NCBI GenBank assembly: GCA_029906985.1 | Contig: JARYMT010000001.1 | Span: 67,223-131,222, forward strand | From: Microgenomates group bacterium | GTDB lineage: Bacteria; Patescibacteriota; Microgenomatia; UBA1406; GWC2-37-13 | DNA: 64,000 nucleotides | Reading direction: 5' to 3' | Part shown: piece after piece, positions 9,811 to 51,728 of the stretch | How the letters are laid out: each line of letters opens with the position of its first letter | Position numbering within the stretch: position 1 is the first letter of the stretch | The notes under the pieces: model-generated | Databases searched by the model: none | What the model was told of the DNA's origin: nothing | Seen by the model: only the letters and a program-made list of their open reading frames with translations | Program-made: the position numbers and the translations under genes

Positions 9811-11472
9811 ATGAAAAATTATTTTTTAATATTGGTTTTTGCTTTTGGCTTTCTTTTTTTAAGTTATGTTCCCAATTTTTATGAAGTCTCGCTAGTTGAC
9901 CAAATTGCTTCCGACCGGACAATAATTTTGGGCGAACATATTTATCCTTATGATTATAATGTTTATCTTTCAAAAATCAGACAAGGGGCAGAGGGCCGTT
10001 TAACTGTGGTTGATAAGTATGATAATAATCCAAGTCAAAAAGGTGTTTTTTTACAAATGTTTTATCTGCTCTCTGGAAAAGTGGGTGGCTTTTTTAGACT
10101 TGAACCGGGCACAATTTATTTTTTAATGCGGTTGTTTGCTTCTGTTTTTTGGCTTTTAACGATCGTTTTTTTAAATATCTTGTTTCTTCGGCAAAAACGA
10201 TTTTATCTTTTGGGAATTATTTTATGTCTTTTAAGTGCCAGTTGGCCGGTAATTGCTAAAATTGATAATCAATTTTGGTTAAAAGGTTATATGGACTGGT
10301 GGCAGGAGATGGATGTCTTAAAAAGAATTAGTTTTTTGCCCCATGATGTTGTTAATTACCTAAATCTTGCCTTTTTAAATATTTTCCTTTATTTTTTTTC
10401 AATCACCAACCAGAAAAAATATTTCTTTTTTATCGCTGTGATATTGTTTTTTTCTTTTTTCATTCATCCGGCAGCCGGCTTGACTTTTTTGATTTCCTGG
10501 TTTTTGTTCCACTTTATAAAATTTATTTTCTTTAAGGAAAAAGTCAATCGATACAAAAAAAATAATTTAAAAAAATTTTTTCTTACGACTTTGGTTTTGG
10601 TTTTAGTAAGTTTAATCCCCCTTTTTTATATCAAAACAGTTGTCTCCGCTTACCCGTGGAAAACCTTGGTCGATTTTGATCAATACCAACGCCTGCCTTT
10701 TTCTTTAAAAGAATATTTTTTAGCTTTGGGGCCGATATTAATCAGTGGTTTTTTTGGCATCTTTCTGGTCTTCTTACAAAAAAATCGCCGGTTTTTAATT
10801 TTGACCAGCTGGTTTTTGTCTACTCTAATGGGGATGGTAATTTTCACCTTTTTCCCCTGGCAGTCGCCGATGCGTTTTGTCCAAACTGCCAATCATATTC
10901 CTTTGGCGATTTTGTCTGTTTATTTTTTTGAGGCAATGTTAAAAAGAAAAAAATTCTCGCTTAATTTAATCTTGTATATATTAATAACAATCACGATTGT
11001 TTCCGGTGGCCTGTTGACTTTTTATTCTTTGAAAAGCCAAAATCATTTCATTCATCAAAGGGTCGTAGCAACAATCCCTTTGGTTCCCTATCCTCCCCAA
11101 GTCATGTATCCTTTAACTGATTTTTATCAGGGATTAAAATGGCTTGAGAAAAATACTGATCGGCAGAGCATTGTTTTATCAAAAATTACTGCCGGTAATT
11201 ATATCCCCGCCTATGCCGGCAATTTTGTCTTTTTTGGTCATGTTGGAGAAACGCCCCATTTTTTTGAACGAGAAAAGTTGGTAAATAATTTCTTTTCTGG
11301 ATTAATGAATCCCGGGGAGGCTAAAGATTTTTTGAAAAAAGAAGGTATAAATTACATTTTTTATGGACCGCAGGAGAAAGATGGCGCTATTAGAGACATT
11401 GACCGATATGATTTTATAAAACCTGTTTTTAAATCAAATTATGTTACTATATATTCTTTTACAAAAGAATAA
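9811..11472 (+). CDS. polytopic membrane protein (GT-C-like candidate), paralogue 1
   Basis: 553 aa, many TM helices plus a C-terminal soluble domain. C-terminal region (..AKDFLKKEGINYIFYGPQEKDG..) parallels the next ORF (..ALNFLKKNHFDYVYFGYQEAYGGG..), indicating tandem paralogy. Confidence 0.5.
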   Translation: MKNYFLILVFAFGFLFLSYVPNFYEVSLVDQIASDRTIILGEHIYPYDYNVYLSKIRQGAEGRLTVVDKYDNNPSQKGVFLQMFYLLSGKVGGFFRLEPGTIYFLMRLFASVFWLLTIVFLNILFLRQKRFYLLGIILCLLSASWPVIAKIDNQFWLKGYMDWWQEMDVLKRISFLPHDVVNYLNLAFLNIFLYFFSITNQKKYFFFIAVILFFSFFIHPAAGLTFLISWFLFHFIKFIFFKEKVNRYKKNNLKKFFLTTLVLVLVSLIPLFYIKTVVSAYPWKTLVDFDQYQRLPFSLKEYFLALGPILISGFFGIFLVFLQKNRRFLILTSWFLSTLMGMVIFTFFPWQSPMRFVQTANHIPLAILSVYFFEAMLKRKKFSLNLILYILITITIVSGGLLTFYSLKSQNHFIHQRVVATIPLVPYPPQVMYPLTDFYQGLKWLEKNTDRQSIVLSKITAGNYIPAYAGNFVFFGHVGETPHFFEREKLVNNFFSGLMNPGEAKDFLKKEGINYIFYGPQEKDGAIRDIDRYDFIKPVFKSNYVTIYSFTKE

Positions 11473-41230: not shown

Positions 41231-42016
41231 TTAGACAATCCCTATCTCTTTAATCTCAAACCCTCCATCAGCCTCAAAGTTAACCTGATAGATCGGCAAG
41301 CCCTTAGCTAGTCTTCTTGAGGTTTCCATTAAATGATTCTCCGCCATTTCCGACAAAACCTGATAAAGATATTCTCCGTTTAGGCTTTTATAAAGCTTGA
41401 CTGCTTTTTGTTTAACTAATTCTTCTGCCAGTTTTTTATATCTTTCCTGGGCTAGGCTCTGATGATAAACAAAAACCTGAACTTCAATTTTGCCTTCTTG
41501 ACTGTCTAAGTTATAACGGGGATAAAGGCTGTAGGGGCCAGAAACGATTAACACCGCCCCCTCAAGATGTTCGCCGTGAAGAATAATTTCTTTCGCTCCT
41601 TTTTTTTTGGCGCTGGTAAATTTTGCTCGTATTTTTTCGACCTGTTTTTTGTCAAGATTATAAGCTTGGGAGTCAAGGGTCATTTGTTTGAAATGACCGC
41701 AGCCTCCAAGCGTGAGATTTTTTTCGGCGTGAGAATCGGTATGGAACTGGAGATTTTTTTCTCCGCCAACCATTTCCACCAAGACTTGATATGCTTTATC
41801 AAGATCAACTTCAAAGCCATAAGAATTGCCTGTGGCTAAAATCAAGGCTAGATCTCCGGCATCCGCCCCCGGCACCCCGATAGGCGCCAACTGACCTTGA
41901 ACCTGGTATCTACCGTCTATGCATCTACTCGCCAGCCTCATCTTAGCTTCAACTTTATAATGATTGTCCGAAACAATTTTCCTCACCTGTTCAATTGAAA
42001 GAATATATTTTTTCAT
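41231..42016 (-). CDS. hypothetical protein (CIDGR ... HTDSH ... GGCGH motifs)
   Basis: 261-aa soluble ORF, no family recognised. The Cys/Asp/His motif spacing is loosely beta-CA-like. Confidence 0.4.
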   Translation of the reverse strand: MKKYILSIEQVRKIVSDNHYKVEAKMRLASRCIDGRYQVQGQLAPIGVPGADAGDLALILATGNSYGFEVDLDKAYQVLVEMVGGEKNLQFHTDSHAEKNLTLGGCGHFKQMTLDSQAYNLDKKQVEKIRAKFTSAKKKGAKEIILHGEHLEGAVLIVSGPYSLYPRYNLDSQEGKIEVQVFVYHQSLAQERYKKLAEELVKQKAVKLYKSLNGEYLYQVLSEMAENHLMETSRRLAKGLPIYQVNFEADGGFEIKEIGIV

Positions 42017-42101
42017 ATAAGAAAAAATTATATCACATGTTTCTAAAACCTTTGGGGTTTTATTGAAAAGTAAAAATCAAAGATTGAATTATTAACAAAA
42101 G

Positions 42102-42130
42102 TTGACTTTTTTCCCCTAGTTTTATATAAT
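42102..42130 (+). promoter_or_regulatory. near-consensus sigma-70-type promoter TTGACT-17-TATAAT
   Basis: TTGACT at 42102-42107, a 17-nt spacer, TATAAT at 42125-42130. No coding gene for about 490 nt downstream. Confidence 0.55.
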
Positions 42131-42136
42131 TTGCTA

Positions 42137-42620
42137 TAGGCTATTTTATCGCCTGAAGTGCGGTTTAATAAAGTTCGTAAAACAAGCAAACGAACTAACA
42201 AAAAAACAATTAAACCGCTTTTTTGATGTTCTTAAAATCAAAGCTTGAGTCAAGCATTCAGGCTTCAAAAATAAGGATTTTAAGCGCGCACCTTAACAAC
42301 CAGCAGCAACTTGAGGTTCCACACAAATTCCTAATAGGGATTTAATCTATTAAGGTTTGTTGGGAACCGAAATCCAGCCGTAGCGATTAACTCTCTATAT
42401 CTAAAATTAGATGTTTGAGATTATTCGCGTAGGCGGATCAAAAAGGTTATCTCCTTTTAAAAGTTGCCTTCCACTTTAAATCGGTCCAAAAGACGGGTTT
42501 AGAGAGGAAGCGCAACTTATATCGAATAAACAACGAGGAGGTGATGGAGTGATCAAATAAAAAACAACTGAATACGGATCAATTCGTGCAGTATCTAGTT
42601 CCATAGGGAGAAAAAGACCA
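42137..42620 (+). ncRNA. about 0.5-kb hairpin-rich non-coding transcript (large ncRNA or long structured leader of 42624..43001)
   Basis: No ORF of 60 aa or more on either strand. Successive imperfect long hairpins at about 42170-42228, 42315-42368, 42378-42436, 42441-42458 and 42464-42515. GC visibly above the genome background. Confidence 0.35.
42170..42234 (+). terminator. intrinsic-terminator/attenuator-like hairpin plus T-tract about 35-100 nt after the predicted TSS
   Basis: GCGGTTTAAT...(inner GTTCGT/ACGAAC)...ATTAAACCGC followed by TTTTTT (42229-42234). Confidence 0.45.
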
Positions 42621-42623
42621 ACT

Positions 42624-43001
42624 ATGAGAAAGAAAGTAGCTTACTTGATACTTGTCGCGGTGCTCCTCGTCGTTCTCGTGCCAACCTTCACGGACGACAC
42701 TTTTGCCGCCGGCCCAACCCTCAAGCCCGGAACGCTTGTCCGGATCACTGGACGAGGGTACTATAACCCTGAATGCGTCGGGTTTAGAGGGTGGCTATGG
42801 GAAGGTTCTAACCCCCAACAGTTCTACCGAATTTGCGGGTTGCCTCACGGCTATGACCATGGCATAGGAGTAGTTACTCCGAACAATTCGGGAGGTTACT
42901 ACTTTAACAAATGCTATCGAGTCTGCTTCGCATACGAAATTTGCGCATGGTACCCAACAAAATCTCTGGTGCCACTACCGTGGCAACCGGCGATCAGGTA
43001 G
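42624..43001 (+). CDS. small secreted Cys-rich protein, compositionally foreign
   Basis: 125 aa. Signal peptide MRKKVAYLILVAVLLVVLVPTFTDDTFA|AG. The mature part of about 95 aa has 5 Cys and many Gly/Tyr/Trp. Codon choice is GC-rich (CTC, GTC, GCC, CGG), unlike the neighbours. GGGAG lies 14 nt upstream of the ATG. Confidence 0.6.
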   Translation: MRKKVAYLILVAVLLVVLVPTFTDDTFAAGPTLKPGTLVRITGRGYYNPECVGFRGWLWEGSNPQQFYRICGLPHGYDHGIGVVTPNNSGGYYFNKCYRVCFAYEICAWYPTKSLVPLPWQPAIR

Positions 43002-43164: not shown

Positions 43165-44352
43165 TTACTCTTGCTTAAAAAAGGTAGAAATGAGTGCCAA
43201 CGTTTTTGGCCCAAGTCCTCTTATTTTTCGACCATTGTCTCCCTTTAGCCATTGTTTAAGATCTTCGATACTTGTTATTCCTCCTCTTATTAACATCCGT
43301 ATAATCCTTGTCGCCTGACTCTGGTTTGTTTGCCCTAACAAAAATGCCTGAAGCAAAGCAAGAGGGTTTTGGTCTTTTCTTAAACAATGTTTATCAAGCC
43401 TGTTTATCATTCTTTTTATGGTATTTTTTACCTCCTTAAAAGTTAATCCAAGCTCTTCTGCGATCTGTTTATAATTTTTTTTCTCAAATAAATATTTTTG
43501 TAAAATTATCCGCTCAAATTCACTAGTTAATTGATCAATAATTCCCTCTTCGGCTGCTTGTTGATAAATTCTGAGGAATTGTTCCCGGATTTTCGGAACC
43601 AGACCAAGAAAATACATCCGTTTGGCTATCCATAGATATTTGTCTCCAACCCCATATTCATAAGCTAAAGTTTTTAAACTCCAACCGCGCCGTACTGCCT
43701 CTTCATAAACAGCTTCTACTGGTCTGCCAAAAACTGCTTTCAGTTGAGCCTTATATTTTTCTCTTCTTTGCTCATCGGTCATTTTTTTATAAAGACGTTG
43801 TTTCCTTGACTTTGGCCAATTTTGATAATCTATTCCAAATTTCCTAAACCAGCCACAAACTGTTTGAAAATTAAGCCCTAATAAGTTGGCCAAAGCCGCC
43901 GGCCTCATCCTCATTCTTATAATAAATTGTCTAAGCGACTCCCCCGGTTGCCTCAGTTCTTCCAATTTAGGAGATTTTACTCTCTGTGAAAATCTTTTTT
44001 TAGAGGGAGGCAATGATTTCCAGTCTGCTCCAACACGCTTTAACAAAGCTTTCGCTTCATCGTAGGGAATATTAAATAAGTCGGCGATTTCATTTGGTCT
44101 CATTCCAGAATAAAGTATAACCTCCTCAACCGTCTCACCGGCGACTCTTAGGGCTTCTGCTGTTTCTTGAATCTTTCCTGGTTTTAATGGTTTTGTAATT
44201 TTTTCTTTGTTGGGAGGAGTTATTCCATGGGTCGATAAGTAATCTGCTCTTGTATTTAAAACCCGAATCATTGCTTGGACCAAGCTGCCAACAGATTCTT
44301 TTGAAACTGGTGGTGCCTGATCTGCTTCCGGCCGACAAAAAACTTTTTCCAT
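43165..44352 (-). CDS. multi-HTH protein with sigma-70 region-4-like HTH and RNAP alpha-CTD-like HhH domain (paralogue A)
   Basis: 395 aa. Three repeated HTH-like modules (MRPNEIADLFNIPYDEAKALLKRVGADW; MRPAALANLLGLNFQTVCGWFRKFGIDY; WSLKTLAYEYGVGDKYLWIAKR). Sigma-r4-like ERIILQKYLFEKKNYKQIAEELGLTFKEVKNTIKRMINRL. C-terminal RMLIRGGITSIEDLKQW...IRGLGPKTLALI. Confidence 0.55.
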   Translation of the reverse strand: MEKVFCRPEADQAPPVSKESVGSLVQAMIRVLNTRADYLSTHGITPPNKEKITKPLKPGKIQETAEALRVAGETVEEVILYSGMRPNEIADLFNIPYDEAKALLKRVGADWKSLPPSKKRFSQRVKSPKLEELRQPGESLRQFIIRMRMRPAALANLLGLNFQTVCGWFRKFGIDYQNWPKSRKQRLYKKMTDEQRREKYKAQLKAVFGRPVEAVYEEAVRRGWSLKTLAYEYGVGDKYLWIAKRMYFLGLVPKIREQFLRIYQQAAEEGIIDQLTSEFERIILQKYLFEKKNYKQIAEELGLTFKEVKNTIKRMINRLDKHCLRKDQNPLALLQAFLLGQTNQSQATRIIRMLIRGGITSIEDLKQWLKGDNGRKIRGLGPKTLALISTFFKQE

Positions 44353-44477
44353 ATTTAATATTATACCTTATAATACTATAAGATAAATGTGATGTCACCT
44401 GTTAACTATTTACTGACTTCTCCCCATACCGACTAGTGCGGGCAATATTTTAGCTCCATACCAAACGGTGCGGGACT

Positions 44478-44705
44478 TAAAAAGACCATATTTTATTATT
44501 CAAACCTATCAAGATTTCTCCCCAGTTATTATTCGAGTAAGCGGAGGGTGTCAAGAACTATTCCCGGTTACTGTTCGAGCTTGTCAAGAAACATCCTTGG
44601 TTATTATTTAAGCTTGTCAAGAATCTTTATGTTGTTTAAGCAATCCCAGATAAGAAGAGTCCAATAATTAAAAAAATAAACTTTTAAATAATACAAATTG
44701 TAGTG
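44478..44705. repeat. 228-bp direct repeat, copy A (four tandem TTGACA-containing units plus A/T-rich tail)
   Basis: By eye, identical to 46735-46969 except one substitution (44538 t versus 46795 c) and a 7-nt TTAATTA indel near the end. Internal units GTTAYTRTTYRAGC..TTGTCAAGAA have motif starts at 44507 (degenerate), 44549, 44582 and 44615, giving spacings of 42, 33 and 33 nt. Confidence 0.9.
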
Positions 44706-44905
44706 GGGAAAAGGGGGGCGTTCACGTATTAAACCTTTTTAACCTAAAAAGCTATTTAAAAAAAGCAGGTGTCGGAAAGAAAGAAGAAATATTAAGAACT
44801 AAAAATATCACAAACTTTTAAAAGACCACCTTAATTAGAATTAATAAATAACCAATTTCTTAAACTTAATCAACTTTTAGTAAAGCGTTTTATCTCATAA
44901 AAGCT

Positions 44906-46627
44906 TCACGTATTCTTGCTGTTTTCCCAATCATTGACCTGGTCTCTTATTTTTTGTAACTGTTCTTTTATCTTATCAATCTGATGCGGTTTGATGCCTA
45001 AATTTCTCAATTCAGAATCATTACAGGATAATAAAAATTCTAGGGTAGTTTTTTTGTTGTCTCTTAAAAAACGATTAGATATTCTTGCGCCGGCGATTAA
45101 CCGGATTTCCCCCCATTCAGCTGATTGACTGGAAATAATATTTTTTTCAAATAATTTCCGCCTTAACTCATTAATCTGAGTAGGTTTTAATCCTTTGGTT
45201 ATTAATTCGTCATCACTTAGCGTGGCCACTTCTGCTGGTGAGATCTTTAAACGATATAGTCTATTACTAAGTCTTGGTCGAAGCTTAAAATCTGACCATT
45301 TTGCCTCTCTCTTTAGGTCTTCTTGCCAGAGGATAAATTTTTGATAATTAAATTTGGTTTGCAAAGTTAAAGACAAAGTTCCTTCGATCGCTCTAGCCAA
45401 ATTTAAACCATGATCGTTTAACCAGTCTTTAATATCTTGAAGAGTTTTGTTTCCGATCCCTCTTATGCGCCGTAATTGTTGCGGAGTTAGCGCTTTTAAC
45501 TCATCTATAGTAGTAATTCCCCCCCTCAATAAGGCGTTTCTGGCCCGAATTGGTAATCCGGAAAATGGGTCGACTACTCCTAGTTCCACCGCTCCCCAAG
45601 ATTTATTAATATTAATAGCTTTAAGAATTTTTGTTTTTATGCTTTGAAGATGTTGAAGAATTCTTTGTCTGGTGACTCGACCAAATTTTTCCTGATATTT
45701 TTCTAGAAGTTCGCTAATATTGGTAACTAATCCCTTTTTTAATAGATCGAAAATAAATTCTTGTTTGGGCGATAAAGATAAAGACAAATCAGGATATTTT
45801 CCAATTACCCATTTAAATACTCCAACTCGTCCTAATTGACTTATTTCTCTGGTCTTTTCTAACCAATCTCTTAAAGTATCAGGATTTATTCCTTTTTTAT
45901 GAGCAATGTCTCTTAAACTAAGGTTGTTAAAAAAAATTTGTTTTATGATTGTATCGAGATAATCTTTACCAAAGTAGCCCTCCAGTTTTGTTTTTGCTTT
46001 ACCCCTTTTTACCTCGGGAGGCGTTTTTTCTTTTATTGAGACTTCATCTTTGGGAAAATCTGAAAAAGGTATTCCCAATCTTCGATAAAGATAATAAACC
46101 AATGCCTTTCGTTGCCGAGGCAAATGAAGCATTCTACATAATTTATCTGGTCTTAATTGATTACTTATAATATATGTTGTTAATTCTTCTTCCCTGTCGG
46201 GAAAACCGTATTTTTGTAATAATTCTTTTGTTTTTTCTTTTAGACGAAACGGTCTTTCAAAAAACGGCCAATCAGCCCCAACTCCTTCTAATAAAGCTCT
46301 TGCCCGGGACGGACTTACTTTTAATATTCGTGCCAACCTTCCGATGGTTGGTTGTGCCGCCGCCAGCCATTCTTCTGGCGTTTGACCGGGAGTTCTTTGG
46401 ACTCTTATTTTATCAAGTTCAACAGGACTAAAAACTCCCGACAAAGGTTTAATCCCGGTTATAGGCGGACCATCAAGACCTTTTGATCTTAAAAAATTTA
46501 TTCTTGTAGCTACTATGGACACTATTTGAAGAACTAACCCGAGCGCATTATTATCTGGCTTAACTTGTTCGTCATTTTCTTTTGGGGGTTCAACAAGATT
46601 TTGTCCTAATGAACATATTCTTTCCAT
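44906..46627 (-). CDS. multi-HTH protein with three RNAP alpha-CTD-like HhH repeats (paralogue B)
   Basis: 573 aa. The N-terminal about 350 aa are collinear with 43165..44352 (e.g. IGRLARILKVSPSRARALLEGVGADW; LSLRDIAHKKGINPDTLRDWLEK). GLPIRARNALLRGGITTIDELKALTPQQLRRIRGIGNKTLQDIKDWLNDHGLNL closely follows the alpha-CTD pattern. Two further degenerate copies follow. Confidence 0.6.
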   Translation of the reverse strand: MERICSLGQNLVEPPKENDEQVKPDNNALGLVLQIVSIVATRINFLRSKGLDGPPITGIKPLSGVFSPVELDKIRVQRTPGQTPEEWLAAAQPTIGRLARILKVSPSRARALLEGVGADWPFFERPFRLKEKTKELLQKYGFPDREEELTTYIISNQLRPDKLCRMLHLPRQRKALVYYLYRRLGIPFSDFPKDEVSIKEKTPPEVKRGKAKTKLEGYFGKDYLDTIIKQIFFNNLSLRDIAHKKGINPDTLRDWLEKTREISQLGRVGVFKWVIGKYPDLSLSLSPKQEFIFDLLKKGLVTNISELLEKYQEKFGRVTRQRILQHLQSIKTKILKAININKSWGAVELGVVDPFSGLPIRARNALLRGGITTIDELKALTPQQLRRIRGIGNKTLQDIKDWLNDHGLNLARAIEGTLSLTLQTKFNYQKFILWQEDLKREAKWSDFKLRPRLSNRLYRLKISPAEVATLSDDELITKGLKPTQINELRRKLFEKNIISSQSAEWGEIRLIAGARISNRFLRDNKKTTLEFLLSCNDSELRNLGIKPHQIDKIKEQLQKIRDQVNDWENSKNT

Positions 46628-46633
46628 TCTTGT

Positions 46634-46662
46634 ATTATACTTTTAAAAATACTATAAGTCAA
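46634..46662 (-). promoter_or_regulatory. consensus promoter TTGACT-17-TATAAT placed for a leaderless mRNA of 44906..46627
   Basis: On the minus strand, TTGACT lies at 46657-46662, followed by a 17-nt spacer and TATAAT at 46634-46639, then ACAAGA and the ATG (46625-46627). The expected +1 therefore coincides with the A of the ATG. The homologous sequence upstream of 44352 reads CTTATAGTATTATAAGGTATAAT-N7-ATG. Confidence 0.55.
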
Positions 46663-46734: not shown

Positions 46735-46969
46735 TAAAAAGACCATATTTTATTATTCAAACCTATCAAGATTTCTCCCCAGTTATTATTCGAGCAAGCG
46801 GAGGGTGTCAAGAACTATTCCCGGTTACTGTTCGAGCTTGTCAAGAAACATCCTTGGTTATTATTTAAGCTTGTCAAGAATCTTTATGTTGTTTAAGCAA
46901 TCCCAGATAAGAAGAGTCCAATAATTAAAAAAATAAACTTTTAAATAATACAATTAATTAATTGTAGTG
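46735..46969. repeat. 235-bp direct repeat, copy B
   Basis: See copy A. Same orientation, offset 2257 bp, located upstream (in the minus-strand sense) of 44906..46627. Confidence 0.9.
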
Positions 46970-47209: not shown

Positions 47210-48361
47210 ATGGCCGCTTCAGTGATTGTCTTTGATCCAACCGCAAATGATGAATTAAGCCGTGTCCGCGGTGTTGGCCGCTACCTACAAATTCTAAAAG
47301 AAAATTTTTCCGGAGAATGGATTTTTACCAACAATTTAACCACAAAGCAATTGAGCTATTCAACAATTTTCATTAACCCATTTTTTAACTTCCTTCAACC
47401 GCCTCTAACTCTCAAACGCCTTGCCAAAAAACAGATCGCCGTTATTCATGATCTTATTCCCTTAAAATATCCCGGGCATTTTCCCGCCGGAATCAAAGGA
47501 AAGATAAATGTCTTTTTAAACAAACTGACTTTAAAAAATTATGACTTAATAATAACCGACTCTGAGGCCTCAAAAAAAGACATTATTCAAATACTTAATC
47601 AACTGCCGGAAAAAGTTAAGGTAGTTTATCCTTGTTTACCAACAGTTTTTAGGGAAAATAAAAATCGGAAAGAGGCTGTGACAGCGAGCCAAAAAAATTT
47701 AAGCAAAATTTTGTTTCCAGACCCACCTCCTAACTTTTGTATTTATGTCGGCGACGCTACCTGGAATAAAAATTTAGTCAACCTGGCAAAGGCAATAAAG
47801 ATAATAAATGTTCCGTGTGTTTTCGTCGGGAAAGTTTTTAGCGCGGGTGGTGAGCGACGGGGGGACCCAACGAGCCGAGCGACATTATCCGCACGGAAGC
47901 ATTTACCAAGTGAGGCGAGCGAGGCTGGGGCTGGCGCGAACCAAGACCCGCCGAAAAATCCATGGTTAAACGAACTCAATCAATTCCTTTTTGAAGCCAA
48001 AAACGACCAACGCTTTATTTTTCCCGGTTTTGTACCTGATGAAAGGCTAATCCAACTCTATAAGCAGGCGAGATTAAACATTCTTGTTTCCCGTGACGAA
48101 GGCTTCGGTTTCTCCTACTTTGAAGCCGCCTCCCAAGGCTGCTCATCAGTTCTTTCCGACATTCCGGTTTTTCGCGAAACCGCCGATAGTGCTGCTTTAT
48201 TTGCCAACCCAAATAATCCAAATGAGATTGCCGATCAAATCGGCGAACTTTATTTTAATGAAGAATTAAGAAATAATTTTAGTCAAAAAGCAAAAAAGCG
48301 CTTCCGTCAATTTTCTCCAGAGAAATTCAAAAGAGAGTTTCTTAATTCGCTTAATTTTTAG
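47210..48361 (+). CDS. family 4 (GT-B, group 1) glycosyltransferase with GC-rich internal insertion
   Basis: C-terminal GT1 core ..VSRDEGFGFSYFEAASQGCSSVLSDIPVFRE.. (EX7E-type). The segment 47841-47955 encodes SAGGERRGDPTSRATLSARKHLPSEASEAGAGANQDPP and is strikingly GC-rich. Confidence 0.8.
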   Translation: MAASVIVFDPTANDELSRVRGVGRYLQILKENFSGEWIFTNNLTTKQLSYSTIFINPFFNFLQPPLTLKRLAKKQIAVIHDLIPLKYPGHFPAGIKGKINVFLNKLTLKNYDLIITDSEASKKDIIQILNQLPEKVKVVYPCLPTVFRENKNRKEAVTASQKNLSKILFPDPPPNFCIYVGDATWNKNLVNLAKAIKIINVPCVFVGKVFSAGGERRGDPTSRATLSARKHLPSEASEAGAGANQDPPKNPWLNELNQFLFEAKNDQRFIFPGFVPDERLIQLYKQARLNILVSRDEGFGFSYFEAASQGCSSVLSDIPVFRETADSAALFANPNNPNEIADQIGELYFNEELRNNFSQKAKKRFRQFSPEKFKREFLNSLNF

Positions 48362-48373
48362 CTTGTTTTTGCC

Positions 48374-48424
48374 ATAAAGGTTGACCGTGGGGGTCAAATT
48401 TATGGCGTCAATATAATCCAAAAT
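48374..48424. repeat. 51-nt hairpin-containing repeat, copy 1 (downstream of GT4)
   Basis: ATAAAGGTTGACCGTGGGGGTCAAATTTATGGCGTCAATATAATCCAAAAT versus 51678-51728, with 4 mismatches by eye. Contains the TTGACC/GGTCAA stem extended by ATAAAGG/TTTATGG. Confidence 0.8.
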
Positions 48425-51662: not shown

Positions 51663-51677
51663 AGTGGTTTTTTTGTT

Positions 51678-51728
51678 ATAAAGGTTGACCGCGGGGGTCA
51701 AACTTATGGCGTCAATATAGTCTAAAAT
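51678..51728. repeat. 51-nt hairpin-containing repeat, copy 2 (between the convergent S8 protease and tatD genes)
   Basis: See copy 1. Confidence 0.8.

Follow-up and report, generated by a model that had tools for sequence, protein, structure and literature searches.

Paralogous proteins with predicted sigma region 4-type and alpha-CTD-type modules, each encoded downstream of a near-identical repeat cassette, in a Microgenomates bacterium

Two neighbouring open reading frames (ORFs) of a Microgenomates group bacterium, p395 (395 aa) and p573 (573 aa), very probably encode proteins in which a helix-turn-helix (HTH) of the sigma-70 region-4/LuxR type, a helix-hairpin-helix (HhH) module of the type found in the C-terminal domain of the alpha subunit (alpha-CTD) of RNA polymerase (RNAP), and further HTH modules are joined in one chain. 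Judged from their sequences, the two proteins appear to represent a new domain architecture assembled from known modules, and each gene is preceded by a 219-bp cassette with phased TTGACA-type sites. The genes lie in the 64,000-nt stretch of contig JARYMT010000001.1 analysed here (hereafter the window), and p395 and p573 are recorded only from one metagenome-assembled genome (MAG) of this group of the candidate phyla radiation (CPR), on a 299-kb contig. An earlier description of the locus made from the letters of the DNA (the original prediction) gave both ORFs with exact coordinates and lengths (Table 1). It had also called the two proteins paralogs, which was borne out by BLASTP: they are collinear, with 26% identity over ~400 aa (E 2e-18), and both N-termini read ME(K/R).

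Alpha-CTD-type modules

Residues 358-404 of p573 matched RNA_pol_A_CTD (PF03118) with 42 bits against a gathering score of 23.8 (E 7.5e-11). A phmmer search of the PDB with p573 returned almost only alpha-CTD chains, the best being that of Bacillus subtilis (1z3e_B, E 4.7e-6). p573 also aligned without gaps to the E. coli alpha-CTD at 34% identity (E 4e-8). It is identical at the positions equivalent to E. coli R265, N268, G296 and K298, and has T in place of S299; in E. coli these five residues contact the DNA of the UP element. Several DNA-contact residues are lost in the aligned copies of p395 and of its one relative outside this genome, P0005 (described below). The C-terminal ~60 aa of p395, taken alone, gave HHH_3 at E 0.2 and no BLASTP alignment to the E. 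coli alpha-CTD, and it is only through alignment with p573 that this module can be called putatively alpha-CTD-like. When a profile of the three family alpha-CTD segments was compared with the PDB, 38 of 39 matches were RpoA (best E 2.4e-8).

The original prediction counted one alpha-CTD copy in p395 and three in p573. The first p573 copy is strong, the p395 copy is not significant by itself, and the second and third p573 copies are weak: the two candidate repeats in the tail of p573 matched the family alpha-CTD profile (A4) in register with hhalign E-values of 0.11 and 0.012, and the same extension matched SAM_1 (E 0.001) below its gathering score.

No match to the N-terminal domain of the alpha subunit (RNA_pol_A_bac or RNA_pol_L) was found with Pfam, and the rpoA equivalog models of NCBIfam matched p573 locally, with 12-38 bits against cutoffs of 228-523. 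p573 is thus like RpoA in its PF03118 match (residues 357-412) and in the UP-element contact residues kept, and unlike RpoA in that the N-terminal domain is missing and the alpha-CTD-type domain sits C-terminally in a multi-HTH protein. Identity as RpoA or another RNAP subunit was rejected since the alpha N-terminal domain is absent.

Models of the BREX kinase PglW (NCBIfam NF033442 and PADLOC PglW) matched residues 356-412 of p573 (45392-45562), which indicates that PglW carries a related HhH segment. No other match of p395 or p573 to known defence systems was found, and membership of such a system was rejected, the HhH in common with PglW being the sole match.

Sigma region 4/LuxR-type HTH

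p395 passed the Pfam threshold for Sigma70_r4 (PF04545) at residues 273-319, narrowly, with 24.5 bits against a gathering score of 24.1. HTH_23 likewise passed, and the double match is the expected ambiguity within the HTH clan. Below threshold were GerE (E 0.015) and TIGR02937 (E 9.6e-9, 35.1 bits against a cutoff of 42.9), whose match is essentially region 4. In Foldseek the best compact local matches of the p395 structure model were isolated sigma-4 domains, namely SigF (8jzt_C), SigL (3hug) and SigD (3vep), with TMt 0.6-0.75 and probability 0.94-0.99, yet with E above 1 and so not significant; for 8jzt_C the values were TMt 0.73, rmsd 2.1 A and probability 0.99.

The collinear segment of p573 has a primary-sigma-like helix, GRVTRQRILQ, and gave no significant match to Sigma70_r4 or any other hidden Markov model (HMM). 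Its top match among 177,635 PDB sequences was region 4 of Thermus aquaticus sigma-A (1rio_H), in register, FGRVTRQRILQ being aligned to FG-VTRERIRQ, at a non-significant E of 0.86. The family profile of the segment (A9) matched NarL (E 0.007), FliA, SigB, WhiG and DevR in the PDB (E 0.007-0.2). The label sigma-4/LuxR-type HTH, originally given to both proteins, is therefore justified for p395, which passes the Pfam threshold, and probable for p573.

The resemblance to the sigma-70 region 4 and LuxR-GerE families (PF04545, PF00196) lies in the Sigma70_r4 pass and the local structure matches of p395. Unlike sigma-70 family members, neither protein has a region 2 or 3 (no Sigma70_r2 or Sigma70_r3 match at E up to 1 in Pfam), and the residues that would read the -35 element are absent in p395 and partly present in p573. 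Without region 2 or 3 they cannot be sigma factors. They were likewise rejected as LuxR/GerE response regulators, because no receiver domain was found with Pfam; the GerE match itself stayed below the gathering score.

Overall fold and N-terminal HTH modules

AlphaFold2 models of both proteins are entirely helical, in agreement with the predicted chains of small helical modules. The p395 model, built from a three-sequence alignment, had a pLDDT (predicted local distance difference test) of 66 overall and ~80 over residues 130-320; the single-sequence model of p573 had 53, with the alpha-CTD region below 50, and was kept out of the fold search. In BFVD the structural neighbours (E about 6e-4) were phage proteins with multiple HTHs and the DNA-binding tails of endonucleases.

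Three similar HTH repeats had been predicted in the N-terminal part. Modules 1 and 2 are indeed related (hhalign profile-profile E 1.3e-6, probability 91%), whereas module 3 had no relationship to either with hhalign and is a separate HTH type. Module 2 is the most conserved signature of the family, FIIRMRxRPAAL..LGL..V..WFRKFGIDYxNWP, with 51% identity between p395 and P0005. In p573, residues 226-260 gave sub-threshold matches to HTH_28 and HTH_Tnp_1 in Pfam.

Scans of p395 and p573 with HMM libraries found no catalytic, core-binding, receiver, Rep, ParB or DDE domain. The domain reading survived the HMM searches, the PDB sequence searches and the partial structural tests. Similarity to terminases, transposases and ParB/KorB, families named in the original prediction as competing assignments, amounted to sub-threshold HTH-clan noise, and since no alternative family assignment appeared the predicted domain types stand. 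A ParB/KorB or KorA-type protein was rejected, as there was no ParBc match and KORA scored 18 bits against a gathering score of 26.7; so was a DDE transposase with an HTH array, HTH_23, HTH_28 and HTH_Tnp_1 modules being present with no DDE domain in either protein.

Multi-HTH tails of phage homing endonucleases read long DNA targets. p395 and p573 have in common with these tails and with D5-like regulators (PHROG 323, 7545 and 8446; BFVD A0A482MMZ3) a beads-on-a-string helical architecture, and differ in having no nuclease or other catalytic domain; only HTH modules are similar, and marginally so (E 1e-6 to 1e-3). A search of the accessible literature, a weak negative, found no description of sigma-4-type and alpha-CTD-type modules in one non-RNAP protein.

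The upstream cassette

The regions upstream of p395 and p573 (553 and 582 nt) are unalignable save for a 219-nt block and the core promoter. The two copies of the block, A before p395 and B before p573, are identical at 218 of 219 positions, with the single mismatch at block position 159 and sharp edges; a further 10 nt, CACTACAATT, are common upstream of the block across a 7-nt indel. The orientation is the same at both loci and the distance to the ATG is 125 nt for p395 and 107 nt for p573. No further copy was found within the window. Given this near-identity, the two arrays constitute one observation and not two, and a block 99.5% identical before proteins 26% identical must have been copied or converted recently. 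The exact repeat of 158 nt is hard for short-read assemblers; the assembly graph still demands the block in two contexts.

The motif TTCTTGACA occurs eight times in the window against 0.5 expected, with six of the eight in the two upstream regions. Read towards its gene, each cassette starts with ~40 nt at 80-90% A+T, then a possible degenerate unit, TTCTTATCT, and then three exact TTCTTGACA sites (block positions 74, 107 and 140) and one degenerate site, TCTTGATA (position 183). The TCTTGA cores start at positions 75, 108, 141 and 183, at intervals of 33, 33 and 42 bp that approximate 3, 3 and 4 helical turns. An A/T box, (A/G)TAA(C/A), follows each site. The program TRF reported a period of 33 with 2.3 copies and 78% matches. 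The original prediction of four tandem copies of TTGACA plus A/T-rich DNA thus described real arrays, in which three sites are exact and the fourth is degenerate. Between units the core of 8-9 nt stays invariant and the remaining sequence diverges (units 1 and 2 are 78% identical, and unit 3 has a 9-nt insertion), and this combination of invariant core, diverged remainder and an insertion that restores the helical phase is the signature of a selected protein-binding array. On inspection, none of units 1-3 is followed by a usable -10 at 16-18 nt; unit 4 gives TTGATA-16-TATGGT (9/12), and the block ends 7 nt after this -10, at the predicted +1.

Three other readings of the cassette were rejected. 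As a structured non-coding RNA it gave fold z-scores of +0.52 and +0.75 and no Rfam match at E up to 1, bar a spurious snoRNA elsewhere; it contains no credible small ORF; and as a dispersed repeat derived from a miniature inverted-repeat transposable element or insertion sequence it has no terminal inverted repeats (TIRs) or target-site duplications (TSDs) at its edges on inspection, and two copies only in 64 kb.

The two blocks are direct repeats that flank p573 with a period of 2257 bp, so that recombination between them could delete or amplify this gene. The block might accordingly be neutral or selfish, that is, a segmental copy or a non-autonomous mobile or recombination-prone repeat, with RecA-mediated deletion or amplification of the 2257-bp p573 unit as its main effect. 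Its near-identity, the sharp edges against unalignable flanks and the direct orientation at this distance would fit such an origin, as would the related genome described below, which has a single gene and a 77-nt intergenic region. We nevertheless consider it unlikely: TIRs and TSDs are missing, the window holds just the two copies, both copies have the same orientation at a similar distance from the start codons, and the internal phased repeat with its invariant core argues for a selected binding array.

Promoters

The core promoter of p573, TTGACT-17-TATAAT, scores 11/12. In p395 a better -35/-10 pair than that offered by the TATAAT next to the ATG is GTGACA-17-TATTAT, ending 17 nt before the ATG. 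Leaderless expression had been proposed for both genes, and the spacings of 6 and 7 nt and the p573 promoter on which the proposal drew are correct; the geometry is the norm of the window and is not specific to this pair. A motif like the Shine-Dalgarno (SD) sequence is absent at 50 of the 52 long-ORF starts of the window, the other two, one of them p395, having a weak 4-mer 13 nt upstream. Among 49 window genes, 10 have the end of a -10-like hexamer exactly 6 nt before the ATG, a sharp peak over the ~1 gene at each other distance. The near absence of SD motifs and this peak imply widespread leaderless mRNAs in the genome, and leaderless-type promoters without SD are no special feature of p395 and p573. 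Nothing pertinent on leaderless translation in CPR bacteria was found in the literature.

An exact 10-mer in the promoter spacer, CTTATAGTAT, occurs in the window only at 44373-44382 and 46649-46658, and again at the same place before P0005 (about 708-717 of its contig). No other cis element accompanies all three family genes, and this 10-mer is a candidate for an operator or for a second -10 (TATAGT).

Family distribution and the orthologous locus

Word-index homology searches with p573, p395 and a three-sequence alignment returned the queries themselves only. In an exhaustive HMMER search, a profile of the family-specific N-terminal 265-285 residues was compared with 1.84 billion representative proteins; 16 proteins were found at E up to 1e-3, and only one of them, P0005 (422 aa), is a true relative. 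The architecture of P0005 is like that of p395 and p573: module 2, the sigma-4-like segment and two modules of the alpha-CTD-like kind, one matching PF03118 (E 2.5e-7) and the second seen with hhalign (E 9.5e-6). No relative was found in JGI metagenomes (165 pattern matches in a protein-guided scan), IMG/VR, INPHARED phages or PLSDB plasmids (tblastn for phages and plasmids). Scanning metagenomes for the conserved promoter TTGACTTATAGTAT..AAGTATAAT yielded 0 matches. A loose scan of genome contigs for TTCTTGACA-N-TTCTTGACA-N-TCTTGA gave at least 118 unrelated tandem repeats from all phyla, and among the matches listed none encodes a relative or matches the 219-nt block. These searches suggest that the family is almost an orphan and is lineage-restricted.

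P0005 is encoded on a 2.2-kb Logan contig (L001), where it is the single family gene at this position. Its divergent neighbour is the same glycosyltransferase as that at 47210-48361 of the window, with 64% identity, compared with 27-29% between P0005 and p573 or p395; the family therefore evolves much faster than its neighbour. The intergenic region between the two genes is 77 nt long and holds the same core promoter, TTGACTTATAGTAT-N4-AAAAGTATAAT, with a TATAAT ending 13 nt before the ATG. L001 and the region downstream of p395 also have in common a 14-mer, AACACCAGCAGCAA, which in L001 lies shortly after the stop codon.

Conflict-related genes typically show rapid divergence of this kind (27% versus 64% for the neighbouring gene), tandem paralogs and a distribution as extremely narrow as here, and with both a sigma-4 and an alpha-CTD module the proteins could be decoys or mimics of these RNAP parts, titrating activators, anti-sigma-like factors or phage hijacking factors by protein-protein contact rather than acting mainly on DNA. 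This seems very unlikely, since defence-system matches are limited to the PglW HhH, an effector domain is missing, DNA binding is suggested by three further HTH modules, and the DNA-contact residues of the alpha-CTD are kept in p573.

The remaining matches of the exhaustive search are multi-HTH repeat proteins. Two metagenomic examples, P0004 and P0008, have 5-6 near-identical copies of a ~60-aa HTH module, LEQLxxLLGGDPKxxLEDLYxxQGLSxxDIAxRFHKxxxTVxxWFKRFGI, interspersed with NPEYR..LHSPE repeats, and one Sigma70_r4 domain. They resemble p395 and p573 in joining a sigma-4 domain and a module like module 3 in one polypeptide; they differ in the number and near-identity of the copies and in having no alpha-CTD, and the similarity is distant (E 4e-9 to 9e-7 over several stretches). 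P0008 (L120:5001-7070) adjoins an RHS-repeat toxin gene and an N_methyl (pilin-like) gene; nothing relevant was seen in the gene contexts of P0008, P0016 and P0014. Another distant match, P0003, carries IS1595 DDE domains unrelated to the matched region.

Proposed model for recognition of the cassette

We propose that p395 and p573 are lineage-restricted, fast-diverging paralogs of a beads-on-a-string DNA-binding class with no catalytic or RNAP-core-binding domain, each predicted to be a chain of two related HTH modules, a third HTH, the sigma-4/LuxR-type HTH and one or more alpha-CTD-type HhH modules. Most likely they would regulate transcription by reading DNA sites that are extended or repeated; the HTH modules would occupy major grooves, and the alpha-CTD-type module would sit in the minor groove of A/T DNA. 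Each gene would be served by its strong leaderless-type core promoter and, further upstream, by the 219-bp block as a cis-regulatory cassette: an A+T-rich tract, four invariant TCTTGA-A cores on one helical face, and a weak promoter that ends at the boundary. The cassette would have been copied or gene-converted between the two loci recently, which would place both paralogs under the same upstream control. In auto- or cross-regulation, one of the proteins may bind the phased sites cooperatively; the sites match the -35 consensus of host RNAP, with which the bound protein might compete or cooperate. That the proteins bind the cassette is plausible, and binding of the phased sites by one of them would be the most economical model, drawing on adjacency, phasing and the nature of the domains. 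The model in full, including cassette binding, is tentative.

Several observations weigh against it. L001, the one independent homolog locus, has neither the cassette nor any TCTTGAYA site in the whole contig, so the family has no conserved partner in the cassette. On inspection, the R584, E585, R586, R588, Q589 pattern of sigma-70, the textbook residues that read the -35 element, is missing from the recognition helix of p395, and p573 has only three of the five. The A/T box lies downstream of each TTGACA, in the position of a spacer, which is not the place of an UP element for its own hexamer. TTGACA is the host -35 consensus and serves other window genes, which makes host RNAP an equally good candidate reader. 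Finally, the structure models are of modest confidence, and that of p395 gave no significant global match in the PDB with Foldseek, none being at E <0.1.

The original prediction that the proteins bind the TTCTTGACA/A+T units thus gained no independent support. The co-occurrence of protein and repeat that it named as a check fails at the P0005 locus, which is syntenic and has the same core promoter, and its matching of module count to repeat count is numerology. Moreover, since the paralogs are 26% identical and their cassettes are identical, at most one protein, or another factor such as host RNAP, matches both arrays.

The main rival is that host RNAP itself reads the cassette as a portable upstream promoter module, which recruits or stores polymerase and boosts or times the downstream gene, its adjacency to sigma-4/alpha-CTD proteins being coincidental. 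The core is the host -35 consensus that other window genes use, each A/T box has an UP-like position relative to the hexamer of the following unit (~9-24 nt upstream of it), the predicted +1 of the last unit (TTGATA-16-TATGGT) coincides with the cassette end, and the ortholog functions without a cassette. Set against this, units 1-3 have no acceptable -10 at 16-18 nt, both genes already own strong proximal promoters, and within 64 kb the cassette stands only before these two paralogs. We regard this alternative as possible, though rather doubtful.

Locus organization and genomic context

The coordinates of the features are given in Table 1.

Table 1. Features of the p395/p573 locus (positions in the window)
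Feature	Position	Strand	Evidence or remark
p395 gene	43165..44352	-	ORF, 395 aa: N-terminal helix, HTH modules 1-3, sigma-4/LuxR-type HTH, one alpha-CTD-like module
p395 alpha-CTD-like HhH module (aa 335-395)	43168..43350	-	putative; aligns with p573 alpha-CTD
p395 sigma-70 region-4/LuxR-type HTH (aa 273-319)	43396..43536	-	Pfam PF04545
p395 HTH module 3 (aa 195-255)	43588..43770	-	resembles repeated module of P0004, P0008
p395 HTH module 2 (aa 130-180)	43813..43965	-	alignment A5; exhaustive search matched P0005 here
p395 HTH module 1 (aa 60-115)	44008..44175	-	hhalign vs module 2
p395 promoter region GTGACA-17-TATTAT, then TATAAT, with CTTATAGTAT	44360..44398	-	TATAAT ends 7 nt before ATG
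Cassette copy A, upstream of p395	44478..44696	-	TTCTTGACA at 44615-44623, 44582-44590, 44549-44557; TCTTGATA at 44507-44514
p573 gene	44906..46627	-	ORF, 573 aa: plan as in p395 plus C-terminal extension
p573 C-terminal extension (aa 436-573), two candidate degenerate alpha-CTD/SAM-like repeats	44909..45322	-	hhalign
p573 alpha-CTD-type domain (aa 357-412)	45392..45559	-	PF03118 E 7.5e-11; 1z3e_B E 4.7e-6
p573 degenerate sigma-4-like HTH (aa 285-337)	45617..45775	-	probable; collinear with p395 sigma-4 domain
p573 HTH modules 1-3 (aa 70-265)	45833..46420	-	alignment A1
p573 core promoter TTGACT-17-TATAAT, with 10-mer CTTATAGTAT	46634..46662	-	-10 ends 6 nt before ATG
Cassette copy B, upstream of p573	46735..46953	-	sites at 46872-46880, 46839-46847, 46806-46814, 46764-46771

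The neighbours of p395 and p573 are ordinary chromosomal or housekeeping genes: thymidylate synthase, a dCTP-deaminase-like protein, an Rce1-like protease, a group-1 glycosyltransferase, an S8 protease, TatD and RpiB. No phage-, plasmid- or transposon-like gene was seen among them. The window has ~35% G+C with monotonic GC skew, and its composition profile has no GC or skew shift at the locus.

This context bears on the proposal that the proteins are initiators of a mobile replicon, or more broadly that the locus belongs to an integrated element as its replicon or partition module, with the A+T tract and iteron-like repeats as origin or centromere and p395 and p573 as initiator or centromere-binding proteins. 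As in iteron or phased operator arrays, direct repeats at whole helical turns and an A+T tract (80-90% over 40 nt) stand upstream of a DNA-binding-protein gene, and there is a weak, sub-threshold HTH similarity to KORA/TrfB (E 0.0034). Unlike such arrays, the cassette lies amid housekeeping genes such as those for thymidylate synthase, dCTP deaminase, TatD, RpiB and the glycosyltransferase, has the host -35 hexamer as its core, and is absent from the syntenic chromosomal ortholog. Domain scans of the locus and its neighbours found no Rep, Par (ParA), relaxase or integrase domain, no relatives were found in plasmids, phages or viral contigs, and GC and skew are unchanged. An iteron-type initiator or plasmid replicon was rejected for want of a Rep domain, mobile context and plasmid or phage relatives, and the replicon or partition reading as a whole is largely refuted by context and highly improbable.

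A few other features were seen in the window. At 42017-43001 a gene-free stretch of 607 nt precedes an orphan ORF of 125 aa, whose N-terminus resembles a signal peptide and which contains several Cys and Trp residues; like this ORF, the adjacent one of 261 aa (41231-42016) has no Pfam match. A 59-nt repeat at 48366-48424 and 51670-51728 (90% identical) brackets the S8 protease gene; it consists of a long palindrome, GCCATAAAggTTGACCgtggGGGTCAAatTTATGGC, then TATAAT, and may be a terminator plus promoter cassette. A T-rich 47-nt direct repeat (72% identical, 297 nt apart) lies at 9816-9862 and 10113-10159, at the start of and inside ORF 9811-11472.

Implications

Irrespective of binding, the locus documents what appears to be a new domain architecture, a regulatory cassette kept identical between very diverged paralogs, and clear in-window evidence that most genes of this genome are expressed from leaderless-type promoters without Shine-Dalgarno sequences. 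Its generality is limited by the narrow distribution of the family, three proteins among about 15 billion. A bolder view, which we think improbable, is that p395 and p573 act as a free-standing 'reading head' of RNAP that recognises -35 and flanking A/T DNA and occupies, pre-marks or competes for promoters, the TTCTTGACA cassettes serving as titration or autoregulation arrays that set the protein level; such global regulation by promoter mimicry, if true, would be a mode not described in bacteria. If p395 and p573 do read -35-like hexamers and A/T DNA, the promoter-recognition modules of RNAP would be redeployable together as a stand-alone regulator. To our knowledge almost nothing is known of transcription control in CPR bacteria, and the two proteins would then be a tractable entry into it.

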